Below are positions 26,052 through 55,089 of a stretch of DNA of 64,000 nucleotides, in pieces (position 1 is the first letter of the stretch; every line of letters starts with the position of its first letter). The notes beneath the pieces are model-generated. The model did not search any database and had not been told where the DNA came from. It saw nothing but the letters and a program-made list of their open reading frames with translations. Made by a program: the position numbers and the translations under genes. The stretch comes from Desulfobaccales bacterium (GTDB taxonomy: Bacteria > Desulfobacterota > Desulfobaccia > Desulfobaccales > 0-14-0-80-60-11), in NCBI GenBank assembly GCA_052326585.1, contig JBKQLU010000044.1, positions 92,682 through 156,681 of the forward strand. The letters are read 5' to 3'.

Positions 26052-26128
26052 CGGGACGTGGCGCAGACTGGTAGCGCACCTGAATGGGGTTCAGGGGGTC
26101 GGAGGTTCAAATCCTCTCGTCCCGACCA
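26052..26128 (+). tRNA. tRNA-Pro (anticodon GGG), CCA encoded
   Basis: CGGGACGTGGCGCAGACTGGTAGCGCACCTGAATGGGGTTCAGGGGGTCGGAGGTTCAAATCCTCTCGTCCCGACCA, with acceptor stem CGGGACG/CGTCCCG and anticodon loop ATGGGGT. Confidence 0.9.
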
Positions 26129-26178: not shown

Positions 26179-26601
26179 TTAATCATTTTTGGCGGTGTGC
26201 ACATAGTGTGCATGGTTCCCCTTTCAAGACCAAAAATTAACCGGGGGAGACAACTTCACCCGGCCACAAAATCAGTTTTGATGATTACACCCTGCAAAAG
26301 CTGCGAAACTTCTCCAGTTAGCCTTGCCGCCCCCCTAGAGTGTGAAGGTGATAGACAGGCGGGGCACCTTAGTCACCCTTCATGACGCTTCTCGTGCGGC
26401 GCTTTTTCCTGGCCGGGTCATAATCCTACATCCATGCCGGCGATGAAGTTCAAGAATACTTTCAAAAAATCTAGGGGGTGCCTGTTAGGCAGAATCACCC
26501 GAAAAATATTTAATCAGGCATGATCCTCGTCACTTAGCCCATCAAGCCTGGGCAGAACTTTTATAATGAGCAATTTTTTAAAAAAATTTCTTCAAAAGAG
26601 C

Positions 26602-26630
26602 TTGACAGATTCTAAAATTATGACTAATCT
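26602..26630 (+). promoter_or_regulatory. Sigma70-like promoter (TTGACA-17-TAATCT)
   Basis: ttgaca at 26602-26607, a 17-nt spacer, taatct at 26625-26630, placing the TSS just before the riboswitch aptamer. Confidence 0.55.
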
Positions 26631-26635
26631 ACTAC

Positions 26636-26720
26636 CACAGTGAAAAGCCAAACCTGCCGCAAGGTAGGGACGGAAAGCCACGGGTCTTTTAATTCGAGAG
26701 AGATAGCCGGGCTGCCCGGT
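26636..26720 (+). promoter_or_regulatory. GEMM-I class cyclic-dinucleotide riboswitch (c-di-GMP-I type)
   Basis: AAAAGCCAAACC-[CCTGCC GCAA GGTAGG hairpin with GNRA tetraloop]-GGGACGGAAAGCC-ACGGGTC...GCCGGGCTGCC matches the GEMM-I core (GGCAAACC...GGGACGCAAAGCC...CGGG). The two deviations are reciprocal G/C swaps. Confidence 0.6.
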
Positions 26721-26743
26721 TGGAGGGGGCAGGCCGGTTTTTT
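26707..26743 (+). terminator. Intrinsic terminator (riboswitch expression platform)
   Basis: CCGGgCTGCCC-ggttggagg-GGGCAGgCCGG followed by TTTTTT. The 5' arm overlaps the 3' conserved strand of the aptamer. Confidence 0.6.
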
Positions 26744-26868
26744 ATTGCCCCTGAATAAAAAGGAATAAGGGAGTGACCGGCTGAAGGGATTTATAAAAAG
26801 CGAGTTCCCGGATTTTAAGGGAAGGAAAGCGAACAGAGAAGACCAAGCAAGATGAGAAGGAGCACGCC

Positions 26869-27546
26869 ATGAAGAAAGCGGGAATATTGCTAGCGGTCTT
26901 GCTGGTGGTGGTAGGGTTCGCGGCTCAGGCGAATGCAGCTATCATCATCAACCCTGCGAGCGGAGGCGAGCCGAATCTTTGGGACATCTCCACGGGTTGG
27001 GGCTTTACGGTTACCCAAACCCAATTGGAGAACGCCACCACCTCGGAAACCCTGCCCGCAGGCAGTTACACGGTCATTGATCTTGCCAGGTATGCGGGCA
27101 ACGACAACGACGGAGGCTTCTACACCGGAATCGGCAGTGTCCCGGCACACACCGCCACCTTGGCCTCCATCTCGGCCACGGCAGAGGTTGACCCGGACCC
27201 CAACGGCTATAATTCGGCGGTAAGCATTACGTTTAACCCAACCTCCACCTTCGGCTTTTATAACAAAGACATGAGCAACCTTATCCTGGGCACTACCCAG
27301 AACCAAAACGCGGGAAGCCAGTCCAATGGATATATCTTCAATCTAGCATCGATCAATCCCGCCTATGCCGGTGACTACCTGGTTGCCTTTGAGGATGGCG
27401 ATGGGCACCCGCCTTTAAACGACATGGACTACAACGACCTCGTGTTCGCGGTGCAGGTCAATGCCGTCCCGGTCCCTCCCTCTCTGCTCCTCTTCGGCTC
27501 CGGCCTCCTGGGGCTGACTGGCTGGAGGTGGTTCCGGAAAAGTTAA
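26869..27546 (+). CDS. PEP-CTERM-anchored secreted protein with DUF4114-like domain
   Basis: Signal peptide MKKAGILLAVLLVVVGFAAQANA, a DUF4114-like YLVAFEDGDGHPPLNDMDYNDLVFAV, and C-terminal VPVPPSLLLFGSGLLGLTGWRWFRKS (PEP-CTERM layout of motif, TM helix, basic tail). AGGAG SD. Confidence 0.8.
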   Translation: MKKAGILLAVLLVVVGFAAQANAAIIINPASGGEPNLWDISTGWGFTVTQTQLENATTSETLPAGSYTVIDLARYAGNDNDGGFYTGIGSVPAHTATLASISATAEVDPDPNGYNSAVSITFNPTSTFGFYNKDMSNLILGTTQNQNAGSQSNGYIFNLASINPAYAGDYLVAFEDGDGHPPLNDMDYNDLVFAVQVNAVPVPPSLLLFGSGLLGLTGWRWFRKS

Positions 27547-27572
27547 CCAGCCATCGTCTTCAGCAAACTCTA

Positions 27573-27602
27573 AGGCAGGGTCGGAAGGCTCTGCCTTTTT
27601 GG
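27573..27602 (+). terminator. Rho-independent terminator
   Basis: GGCAG-ggtcggaaggct-CTGCC followed by a T-run at 27596-27600 (ctgccttttt then gg). Confidence 0.6.
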
Positions 27603-45569: not shown

Positions 45570-46754
45570 ATGCCGATGTTAGCCAGCAATGGTGTCAAGT
45601 TGAACTATATCCAAACGGGTGCAGGCGCTGATGTCGTCTTGGTCCATGGGCTGGCCTCCAGTTTGGCCTTCTGGTACTGCGGCACGGTTCTGCCGTTGCG
45701 GCGCCATTATCGAGTAACTGCCTATGATCTGCGCGGCCACGGCTACAGCGGTATGCCCACTTCCGGTTATACCCATATGAACATGGCCGAAGATCTGGCC
45801 GGTTTGGTAGATCGCCTGGGCCTGGAAAAATTCCATCTGGTTGGCCACAGCTTCGGAGGCCTCATAGCTATTTCTTATGGCCGGCGTTATCCCCATCGCT
45901 TGAGATCAATGGTGCTGGCAGATGTACCGCTGAATGAAATCAATCCTACTCCGGAGTGGCCCTTTTGGTGGCCAAGCCTGATGAAATTTGAAAACTTGGG
46001 GATCGTTATCCCCCGCGATGAGCCCTATCCGGAATTAAAAGTGCTTGAGGAACTGGCCCGGCCCCAAATTCGCCAACAACTAGGAAACCTTTTATGTGAA
46101 AGCGTGCGCTTGCCCTATGGGTGGGGAAAAGGAGCTGAGCGCGCTGCTAAACGCTGGTTAAATCTATTGAATACCACCACCGCCCCGGATGATATTCGCT
46201 ACCGGCAAGTTTCGGCCGTCGACCTCAGCCAGATTGCCGTGAAAACTTTAGCTGTCTATGGCGTGGAGTCGAAATGGCGCTCTTCAGGTGAGATTTTGAG
46301 AGGCTGCCTGCCTAATGTCGAGGTGGTCTATGTCGAGAAAGCTGGCCATGCTCATCCCTGGGAGCGCCCGGAAGTTTTTTCCGAGCTTTTGCATCGTTTC
46401 CTGGCAGACAGAGACCGCCTCGCCCACCTCTCCCCTGAGGACCGGCGAAAATATCAGCGATTTCCTGTGGAAATGCCGGTAGAAGTGCGAAATCCCGCGG
46501 GAATTTATGCCTCAGCGAAAACCATGAATATCTCGATGAATGGCCTCCGCCTGCACTGTTCTGAAATTATCGGGCGCGGAGACGTCGAAGTTATTATCCC
46601 CGTGAATCAGAACGGTTTAACCCTTATCATACCCGGAAGAATTGTCCGAGAAGAAAATGATGAAGTTGGGGCGGTTTGCCGTTTGGGCGTCGAACTTCTC
46701 TGGCCCGCTGGAGGCAATAAGACGTGGGAAGAGCTTCTGGCCAAGCATCAATAA
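45570..46754 (+). CDS. Alpha/beta-hydrolase fused to a C-terminal PilZ domain
   Basis: ABH: VVLVHGLASS, nucleophile elbow VGHSFGG, GHAHPWERP. PilZ: RRKYQRF (RxxxR, aa 293-297) and NISMNG ((D/N)xSxxG, aa 320-325). Confidence 0.85.
   Translation: MPMLASNGVKLNYIQTGAGADVVLVHGLASSLAFWYCGTVLPLRRHYRVTAYDLRGHGYSGMPTSGYTHMNMAEDLAGLVDRLGLEKFHLVGHSFGGLIAISYGRRYPHRLRSMVLADVPLNEINPTPEWPFWWPSLMKFENLGIVIPRDEPYPELKVLEELARPQIRQQLGNLLCESVRLPYGWGKGAERAAKRWLNLLNTTTAPDDIRYRQVSAVDLSQIAVKTLAVYGVESKWRSSGEILRGCLPNVEVVYVEKAGHAHPWERPEVFSELLHRFLADRDRLAHLSPEDRRKYQRFPVEMPVEVRNPAGIYASAKTMNISMNGLRLHCSEIIGRGDVEVIIPVNQNGLTLIIPGRIVREENDEVGAVCRLGVELLWPAGGNKTWEELLAKHQ
46437..46720 (+). other. Domain: PilZ (c-di-GMP receptor signature intact)
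   Basis: RRKYQRFPVEMPVEV...TMNISMNGLRLH...GRIVREE...CRLGVEL. Confidence 0.75.
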
Positions 46755-53646: not shown

Positions 53647-55089
53647 ATGGAGGAGCGACTGGCCATGAAGCAACCACAATGGGTGCCAAGAATCCATGCC
53701 CTGGGAACCAGCCCGCAGGCCAGACTGGCCCTCGCTGTAACGCACATCAAAAATAGTGAATATCAAGAGGCCTTGAGTGAACTCCGGGCCGCCTTGAAAA
53801 CCAACCCATACCATGCCGATATCCATCTAACTCTCGCCTGGGTCTATACCGCGTTGGACCGGGGAGAGGAAGCCATTGAAGCCGGCCGATCTGCCCTCAA
53901 ATACAACCCCAAGCTGGAACAGGCCCATCTAATCTTGGCACATAACTATAAAAAGCTGGACTATGCCCCTGAGGCCTTGGAGGAGTGTCGCCAAGCCGTA
54001 GAGATCGACCCGAAAAATTTTTATAGCTATCTTCTGTTAGGCGAATTGACTTTTTCGGAAAGGCTCTATGAGGAATCCATCTATGCCTTCAATTCCGCCC
54101 TTAAATACAACCCCCAATTAGAAATGGCACATTATAAACTGGCTAATATCTACCAGCAGAAAAATCAAGAAAATGAAGCCATCGCCGAAATAGAAGCCGC
54201 CCTGCAAATCAATCCAGCCTTGGCTCGTAACCAAATACTGCTGGGCGATATGCTTTTAGCTCGGCATGATTATGAGGCCGCACTGGGCCAGTATAAGGAG
54301 GCGGTGCTGGTTAGTCCGTACATGGCGGAAGCCCATGCCAAAGTCGGCCAATCCTATCTCCATTTGGGATTCAGTCATGAAGCTTTGCAAGCCTTTCGGG
54401 TAGCGCTGCGATTGAACCCGAAACTCGCTGAAGCTCACCTGGGATTGGGGAAAATCTATCTTTCCTTCCGGAAAAGCTCGCCGGCACTGCAAGAATACCA
54501 AGCAGCGTTGGCCCTAAATTCCCAATTGCTGGAGGCACGCGCCGGCTTAGGAGATGTGTTTACTCTGGGAGGACGCTATCAGGAGGCCATCACGGAGTAT
54601 CGGATGGCTCTGCGGCTTATCCAGAAGGGAAGTCTTCGGGGAGAACACTACGCGGCGCAAGGCGAGTATCTCCAGGCAATCGTGGAATTTCGCCACGCTT
54701 TGGATCTTGGGGCCGAGATAATTCTGCCGGACTCGGAATCCGGCAAGCTCATAAAAATGCCCTACCCGGTAGCAGACGAGCGGCGGCGGTACGAACGGTT
54801 CCTCCTCAGGATGCCGGTGGATGTCCGGGAAGGTCCGGGAGCCTATTCTTCCGCCATCATTTTAAATGTCTCCAAGCGGGGTCTGGCGCTCGAAACTACC
54901 TGGGAAATGCCAATGGGCTTCCAAGTGGAAATAATTACCCCCTGGATTCAAAATGATCGAAAAATAGCAGTCCCCGCACGGGTTGTCAGGCTGGAAAGAA
55001 AGGATTCAGGGGAGCATTACCGGTTGGGGTTGGAATTGTCATCCGAAGAGGCAGATAGTAGAGATTGGCAAGACTTTCTTGTTGCCTGA
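53647..55089 (+). CDS. TPR-repeat protein with C-terminal PilZ domain
   Basis: About 9 TPR repeats (aa ~30-340), then RRRYERF (RxxxR, aa 380-384) and NVSKRG ((D/N)xSxxG, aa 407-412). Confidence 0.82.
   Translation: MEERLAMKQPQWVPRIHALGTSPQARLALAVTHIKNSEYQEALSELRAALKTNPYHADIHLTLAWVYTALDRGEEAIEAGRSALKYNPKLEQAHLILAHNYKKLDYAPEALEECRQAVEIDPKNFYSYLLLGELTFSERLYEESIYAFNSALKYNPQLEMAHYKLANIYQQKNQENEAIAEIEAALQINPALARNQILLGDMLLARHDYEAALGQYKEAVLVSPYMAEAHAKVGQSYLHLGFSHEALQAFRVALRLNPKLAEAHLGLGKIYLSFRKSSPALQEYQAALALNSQLLEARAGLGDVFTLGGRYQEAITEYRMALRLIQKGSLRGEHYAAQGEYLQAIVEFRHALDLGAEIILPDSESGKLIKMPYPVADERRRYERFLLRMPVDVREGPGAYSSAIILNVSKRGLALETTWEMPMGFQVEIITPWIQNDRKIAVPARVVRLERKDSGEHYRLGLELSSEEADSRDWQDFLVA
54775..55086 (+). 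other. Domain: PilZ (c-di-GMP receptor signature intact)
   Basis: ERRRYERFLLRMPVDV...ILNVSKRGLALE...ARVVRLE...YRLGLEL. Confidence 0.75.

Follow-up and report, generated by a model that had tools for sequence, protein, structure and literature searches.

The locus considered here raises two questions: which cyclic dinucleotide would be read by the leader ahead of the gene at 26869-27546, and would binding switch that gene on or off? In the window, by which we mean the whole 64,000-nt stretch of DNA analysed, the interval 26638-26720 (+) was the sole riboswitch match obtained with Rfam cmscan across the 64 kb. We assign a probability of about 0.8 to the reading in which this RNA forms the 5' end of a single-gene mRNA, belongs to the class I c-di-GMP riboswitches and works as a transcriptional ON switch, a reading that draws on predicted folds. 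The aptamer comprises the following elements.

26638 to 26720, + strand: c-di-GMP-I (GEMM-I) aptamer, from cmscan and covariation
26638 to 26640, + strand: 5' strand of P1 (CAG), pairing with 26716-26718 (CCG) as two G-C pairs around an A.C mismatch
26643 to 26654, + strand: 5' core AAAAGCCAAACC, read directly
26647, + strand: G equivalent to Vc2 G20, the ligand-base reader; model position 10 in the cmscan alignment
26648 to 26649, + strand: C21 and C22, pairing with G46 (26673) and G45 (26672), from the cmscan alignment and the Vc2 pairs
26653 to 26668, + strand: upper P1b hairpin CCTGCC-GCAA-GGTAGG, 6 bp with a GCAA (GNRA) loop at 26659-26662, from folding
26667 to 26679, + strand: central core GGGACGGAAAGCC, read directly
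26674, + strand: A equivalent to Vc2 A47; model position 37, where the RF03167 consensus has a conserved G
26676 to 26713, + strand: P2 hairpin; lower helix 26676-26683 with 26707-26713, upper helix 26684-26690 with 26698-26704
26706 to 26716, + strand: 3' strand GCCGGGCTGCC, read directly
26715, + strand: C equivalent to Vc2 C92, Watson-Crick partner of a ligand guanine; model position 75

The match covers model positions 1-80 of 80 and, at 71.5 bits with the gathering score set at 59 (E 6e-15), lies far outside what chance would give. The score is that of family RF03167, which belongs with RF01051 to clan CL00126; another family in this clan likewise reached its own gathering score and was displaced by RF03167 as the best match per clan. 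The refuting outcome named beforehand, a score under the threshold, was thus not observed, the answer for RF01051 being an indirect one. The GEMM-I core and GCAA-capped hairpin of the original prediction can all be read directly in the sequence, and the GEMM-I identity is borne out both by a clan covariance-model score above the gathering score and by covariation of P1b and P2 in 102 relatives among the matches listed. In these relatives, 97.1% of the P1b and P2 cells are paired, compared with 86.0% after shuffling of the columns and no more than 49% once the partners are slid. Changes on both sides of a pair number 189 in total, at 7 pairs; four of the six upper P1b pairs show them, and the lower helix of P2 is 95.6% paired in the same 102 relatives. 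P1b and P2 also form the minimum-energy structure of the aptamer. It had been noted earlier that P1 and P2 could not be folded convincingly by eye: P2 in fact folds cleanly, while P1 is truly weak, a point discussed below.

Compared with Vc2 of Vibrio cholerae (GEMM-I, RF01051), the window RNA has the same P1, P1b with a GNRA loop and P2, the same G20, A47 and C92, the same AAACC and GGGAC...AAAGCC core strings, and the same pairing of positions 21 and 22 with 46 and 45. The two RNAs differ in the 21:46 pair (G:C in Vc2, C:G in the window), in the loop (GAAA versus GCAA) and in the sequence of P2; P1 is much shorter in the window, and its expression platform is an overlapping terminator. In Vc2, G21-C46 and C22-G45 are the base pairs adjoining the ligand (PMC11705072). 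Both pairs are kept in the window as C26648:G26673 (21:46) and C26649:G26672 (22:45), the former with both sides changed. The GGC to GCC and ACGC to ACGG swaps, from whose reciprocity a pairing had been deduced, map to positions 21 and 46, so that they represent the two sides of Vc2 G21-C46, a single G:C pair inverted to C:G.

These swaps had been presented as a notable deviation from the known core, whereas they mark a widespread natural subtype. A scan with the pattern GCCAAACC-N8-30-GGGACGGAAAGCC, with one genome per species, found the flipped core at no fewer than 120 loci. The species genomes that carry it, at least 120 in number, belong for the most part to Thermodesulfobacteriota ("delta proteobacterium" MAGs). 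Other carriers among the matches listed belong to Campylobacterota, Acidobacteria, Planctomycetes and some Gammaproteobacteria, and the loci closest to the window, again among the matches listed, are L074 and L051, from two Desulfobaccales MAGs. Relatives contain tandem arrays of 2-4 complete aptamers, and many of these aptamers have a terminator of their own (L074 1927-2297 (-), L093 7162-7518 (-), L084 5811-6304 (+) and L147 6466-7021). L093 and L147 carry four aptamers in a row, and the window holds a single copy.

A scan of metagenomes for the same flip with A at position 20 yielded at least 146 aptamers with the typical look of the Geobacter cGAMP riboswitch. These A20-type (cGAMP-class) aptamers lie on at least 120 metagenome contigs (L125-L244). 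Among those listed, position 43 is occupied by A in 94 of 146 and by G in 52, U predominates at position 22, and many end in GCCGAAAUAUC with the same overlapping terminator. A20-type relatives read A-CU/ACC-AAACC. The A20 group is characterized by U22 and GCC-UAxAGGGUC and the G20 group by C22 and GCC-ACGGGUC; the window RNA follows the latter in both respects and is placed among the G20 siblings on the basis of C22 and its GCC-ACGGGUC entry into P2. As far as these sequences go, the flip is a lineage trait common to the cGAMP class and its G20 siblings.

The shared lineage bears directly on the ligand, since it raises the alternative of a cGAMP (GEMM-Ib) or bispecific cGAMP/c-di-GMP riboswitch. 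The C21:G46 flip and the ACGGAAAGCC core are common to the window, to pilM and to at least 120 metagenomic A20-type aptamers, as are the GCCGGG...GCC strand of P2 and the overlapping-terminator platform, and some natural members of the lineage have been reported as bispecific (PMC6140456). The pilM/Gmet_0970 aptamer of Geobacter metallireducens reads ...CGACAAU-A-CU-AAACC...GGGAC-GG-AAAGCC..., with the same flipped pair (supplement of PMC9262584). Position 20 in the window is nevertheless G and not the A of the cGAMP class, and the C22 and GCC-ACGGGUC of the G20 group are present in place of the U22 and GCC-UAxAGGGUC of the A20 group. In Vc2, G20 reads one ligand guanine and C92 the other; with G20 the binding of c-di-GMP is picomolar and that of cGAMP is at 10 uM, which disfavours cGAMP, and the G20A mutant is bispecific (PMC6140456). 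Conversely, A20G in Gmet_0970 shifts selectivity from cGAMP to c-di-GMP (PMC6456294). We consider the cGAMP or bispecific alternative very improbable.

The nucleotides favour c-di-GMP instead. The canonical c-di-GMP set of G20, A47 and C92 is complete in the window (G26647, A26674 and C26715), and the C92 equivalent is C in 113 of 118 relatives among the matches listed. The earlier assignment of G to the Vc2-20 position, which had been made on the proviso that no indel intervened, stands: the model alignment contains no indel there, and G20 favours c-di-GMP by analogy with A20G Gmet_0970 (PMC6456294). By its bases at these positions, the window RNA is the natural counterpart of that engineered variant. 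Selective binding of c-di-GMP is thus probable from G20 and the published A20G Gmet_0970, which is the only precedent for selectivity with C21:G46 and G20 and has U22, not C22. The "Dp" c-di-GMP biosensor was also considered for comparison and was set aside as not relevant, as it derives from Deinococcus.

A different difficulty is posed by the Rfam label. The best-scoring family for the window RNA, RF03167, describes the orphan variant c-di-GMP-I-GGC, and membership in that class would imply an RNA sensing a ligand other than c-di-GMP. Besides the top score (71.5 bits, gathering score 59), the P2 sequence of the window lies very near the RF03167 consensus, and P2 and the junction together are nearly identical to it. 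The printed alignment gives the consensus as ...AAAGGCAAACC...GGGACGCGAAgCc..., with G21:C46 and then a conserved G. The distinguishing part of the model is ACGCGAAGCC, compared with ACGGAAAGCC in the window (ACGC-G-AAGCC against ACGG-A-AAGCC), and the A at model position 37 is scored as a mismatch, with a blank (negative) match in the alignment. The window therefore has A47 and C21:G46 where the model has G47 and G21:C46, and the feature that distinguishes the variant, G47 for A as judged from the model consensus, is absent. We take "GGC" to denote positions 20/47/92, a reading based on the model consensus.

The same label is attached to relatives with the same binding site. All 20 flipped-pair, A47 aptamers tested, from 18 other loci, scored best on RF03167 (61-76 bits), which indicates that the label tracks the shared P2 and junction sequence of the lineage and not a change in the binding site. 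The loci concerned are L003, L005, L014, L016, L041, L049, L051, L054, L062-L064, L074, L075, L095, L096, L100, L113 and L115. In the Rfam scan of these 18 loci, 22 lower-scoring matches of the same clan were displaced by the best match, and L096 gave one extra canonical RF01051 match. A regular-expression search of the fetched contig loci and the window returned no true G47 variant and no canonical G21:C46 aptamer. Filing the window RNA under RF03167 was therefore dropped, the label being misleading where A stands at the conserved G of the model, and we regard membership in the orphan class as extremely improbable. Automatic Rfam annotation thus gives the name "GGC" to the window RNA and 20 tested relatives despite their canonical binding-site nucleotides, so that counts of the orphan variant class may be, and probably are, inflated.

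The remaining elements of the transcription unit are as follows.

26602 to 26607, + strand: -35 hexamer TTGACA, read directly
26625 to 26630, + strand: -10-like hexamer TAATCT, 17 nt past the -35 hexamer, read directly
26705 to 26743, + strand: intrinsic terminator, 26705-26717 with 26727-26739, and U6 at 26738-26743, from RNAfold
26857 to 26862, + strand: ribosome-binding site AAGGAG, 6 nt before the ATG, read directly
26869 to 27546, + strand: controlled gene, encoding a 225-aa predicted secreted protein with a partial DUF4114 domain and a PEP-CTERM tail, from Pfam and alignment
27572 to 27602, + strand: terminator at the gene end, 11-bp hairpin and U5

The proposed TTGACA-17-TAATCT promoter is present as to hexamers and spacing, but its -10 element is weak, with TAATCT matching TATAAT at only three of six positions, and a consensus promoter/terminator scan did not list it. 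In an alignment with other genomes, TTGACA and TAAT occur at the same offset from the aptamer in four related loci (L074a, L051, L049 and L062), and this conserved position supports a transcription start near 26637, just before P1, as we infer from the sequence. The ribosome-binding site lies 114 nt past the riboswitch terminator and was unpaired with the riboswitch in every fold examined. Given the terminator at the gene end, the unit is monocistronic. A tRNA-Pro (GGG) gene is located about 470 nt upstream of the promoter (26052-26128, +). A tRNA gene just upstream of the riboswitch was also observed in L051 and L115, the latter tRNA being 91% identical to the tRNA-Pro of the window.

The direction of regulation depends on the terminator. 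It had been described as a 10-bp stem with T6 that shares one arm with the aptamer. The T6 and the shared arm were found, whereas the stem is not a clean 10 bp: it consists of 12 bp in two runs of 6 (26705-26710/26734-26739 and 26712-26717/26727-26732), separated by a G.G mismatch and closed by a loop of 9 nt, with a predicted energy of -25.6 kcal/mol and a z of -2.7 (RNAfold). The consensus scan listed neither this terminator nor the one at the gene end; the former was probably missed owing to its 9-nt loop and internal mismatch. The 5' arm of the terminator (26705-26717) comprises the 3' strand of P2, C92 and part of the 3' strand of P1 (C26716 and C26717), and C26715 pairs with G26729 in the terminator fold. 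Because this arm is the 3' strand of the aptamer itself, the two predicted folds are mutually exclusive, in agreement with the ON switch that had been proposed.

The predicted energies are -27.4 kcal/mol for the secondary structure of the aptamer and -41.3 to -44.0 kcal/mol for the terminator conformer. The minimum-energy fold is the aptamer up to a transcript end at about 26732 and the terminator by 26736-26740. This margin of about 14 kcal/mol in favour of the terminator conformer speaks for a kinetic ON switch of the same sort as pilM, which has been shown experimentally to be an ON switch with a terminator that sequesters C75, its C92 equivalent (PMC9262584). Mutants of the Geobacter terminator bypass the ligand requirement (PMC6456294). 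The same overlapping design was observed in 55 of 132 related aptamers among the matches listed. Another expression platform lies downstream of the aptamers in L017, L037, L045, L091 and L104, where the 5' arm of the terminator (GCCCGUGG) is complementary to the 5' strand of P2 (CCACGGGUC) and, unlike the window design, is not identical to the 3' strand of P2.

From these elements the following mechanism may be proposed. Transcription would begin near 26637, and the nascent RNA would fold first into the aptamer, with P1b and its GCAA loop, P2 and a very short P1. The ligand pocket would be formed by G26647 (G20), A26674 (A47) and C26715 (C92), adjoining the C21:G46 pair. Bound c-di-GMP would lock the 3' strand of P2, C92 and P1, so that 26727-26739 could not invade, and polymerase would read through the ligand-held aptamer into the gene of the PEP-CTERM protein. 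Without ligand, 26705-26717 would re-pair with 26727-26739 to give the much more stable terminator and its U6, and transcription would stop at about 26743.

The weak element of this scheme is P1. In the window allele, the only P1 pairs available are C:G, A.C and G:C, with a predicted energy of +4.5 kcal/mol, so that this helix would burden the fold and not stabilise it. A strain variant on a separate metagenome contig, L123, is 99.4% identical over a 311-nt leader; six differing positions and one gap separate L123:12-321 from 26560-26870 of the window. Two of its changes, A26637>C and C26717>T, create four contiguous P1 pairs (CCAG/CUGG) and bring P1 from +4.5 to -2.9 kcal/mol. The changes also weaken the top pair of the terminator; in this comparison the terminator as a whole is at -38.5 kcal/mol in the window and -36.0 kcal/mol in L123, and the window allele is biased in the opposite direction. 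The CAG/CCG register was chosen for P1 because this is the very helix that L123 restores. The register drawn by cmscan (C38:U20, G40:C17, U41:C16) contains two non-standard pairs and was rejected, and a longer irregular helix, CC-AC...GU-GG, was dropped in favour of the register that L123 supports.

This comparison brings up the alternative of a decaying or constitutively terminating relic, in which P1 is broken, the terminator is strengthened and switching is lost. It would account for the A.C mismatch without a flanking pair in the window, compared with four clean pairs and a weaker terminator in L123, and for a gap between aptamer and terminator of 14-18 kcal/mol compared with about 8.5 kcal/mol in L123. 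It is at odds with the intact state of all ligand-contacting and core positions, and with the occurrence of the exact window allele and an intact gene on three of four independent metagenome contigs. A weak P1 is moreover the norm in the subgroup: the median duplex energy is -2.7 kcal/mol, compared with -1.7 kcal/mol in mismatched controls, and among 102 relatives from the matches listed the window takes rank 41. The same T.C pairing also occurs in 16 other listed relatives at a fixed alignment register; at the fixed register of the MAFFT alignment P1 pairs are about 55% paired, a value that is uninformative since junction lengths vary. A short, weak P1 is thus normal in the subgroup, and we consider a relic unlikely.

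P1 length affects ligand binding in Vc2 (PMC11705072), so that with its weak P1 the window allele may be a poor binder or may depend on high ligand levels. A more speculative proposal, to which we give only a small chance, is that the G20/C21:G46/A47/C92 subgroup has relaxed or different dinucleotide selectivity, with alleles such as those of the window and L123 tuning the switching threshold through reciprocal shifts in the strength of P1 and the terminator. Such selectivity is conceivable because the pocket-closing pair and the scaffold are shared with cGAMP riboswitches. If altered selectivity were true, the subgroup would define a dedicated regulon of exosortase substrates.

The gene controlled by the switch had been described as encoding a PEP-CTERM protein, and the sequence of its product agrees. 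Pfam scores of the 225-aa product fall below the cut-offs, at 24.2 bits for DUF4114 (cut-off 27) and 20.5 bits for PEP-CTERM PF07589, just under its cut-off of 20.7. Its tail, VPVPPSLLLFGSGLLGLTGWRWFRKS, aligns with those of 18 other riboswitch-linked PEP-CTERM proteins. The aligned tails agree at P-x-P and GxGLLGL, with P201 and P203 invariant, and 14 of the 19 proteins with such tails match PF07589. The product combines P-x-P, a hydrophobic helix, a basic tail and an N-terminal signal peptide, the last of these recognised by eye as a signal-peptide-like N-terminus. PEP-CTERM-type tails were found in 19 of 107 first downstream ORFs of the subgroup among the matches listed. In L051, a tRNA, the riboswitch and a PEP-CTERM gene follow one another as they do in the window, and the tail is nearly identical. 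A Pfam scan of the 13 ORFs in 26.9-55.1 kb identified no exosortase (EpsH/XrtA).

Downstream of the riboswitch unit, a long co-directional cluster extends over 28299-55089 (+). It includes a sulfotransferase, an APS kinase, two giant polyketide synthases (2763 and 1834 aa), a type I phosphodiesterase-family protein, methyltransferases and short-chain dehydrogenases. Two of its proteins, an alpha/beta hydrolase-PilZ (45570-46754, +) and a TPR-PilZ (53647-55089, +), carry at the C-terminus a PilZ domain, which is a receptor for c-di-GMP. These two PilZ-domain proteins in the neighbouring cluster indicate that c-di-GMP signalling is used in this genome, and the cluster may be involved in c-di-GMP-linked sulfated lipid or polyketide chemistry.

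Two known systems help to place the unit. The pilM/Gmet_0970 riboswitch (GEMM-Ib) has in common with it the C21:G46 pair, the GGGACGGAAAGCC core, the GCCGGG-type 3' strand of P2, and ON logic with a terminator that captures that strand and the C92 equivalent; its engineered A20G form, selective for c-di-GMP, matches the natural G20 state of the window RNA. It differs in its natural A20, its U22, its GCC-UACAGGGUC entry into P2 and its longer 5' junction (ACGACAAU), and it controls genes for the pilus and exoelectrogenesis in response to cGAMP, whereas the window gene encodes a PEP-CTERM protein. c-di-GMP riboswitches ahead of PEP-CTERM genes have already been reported in Methylophaga nitratireducenticrescens GP59, where a c-di-GMP-type riboswitch lies directly before a PEP-CTERM gene in a setting of exopolysaccharide and biofilm biology to which the window unit may be likened (PMC12530212). 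In contrast to the window, this strain belongs to the Gammaproteobacteria and carries several units clustered among EPS genes (PMC12530212), while the window has a single unit adjoining a PKS/sulfation cluster.

Taken with the predicted folds, the window RNA is most likely a genuine and well-formed c-di-GMP-I riboswitch, of a subtype common among deltaproteobacteria, and an ON switch for a PEP-CTERM protein. It leaves the knowledge of how GEMM-I riboswitches work unchanged, and the caveat on the RF03167 label and the natural pair of P1/terminator alleles are mildly useful extras only. For the organism, the riboswitch would link c-di-GMP directly to one exosortase-type surface protein, with no protein factor needed, and high c-di-GMP, as in the sessile, biofilm state, would likely turn on this exosortase/PEP-CTERM-sorted protein. 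About one in five of the recognisable targets of the subtype is a PEP-CTERM protein, which supports a general connection from c-di-GMP to exosortase substrates.
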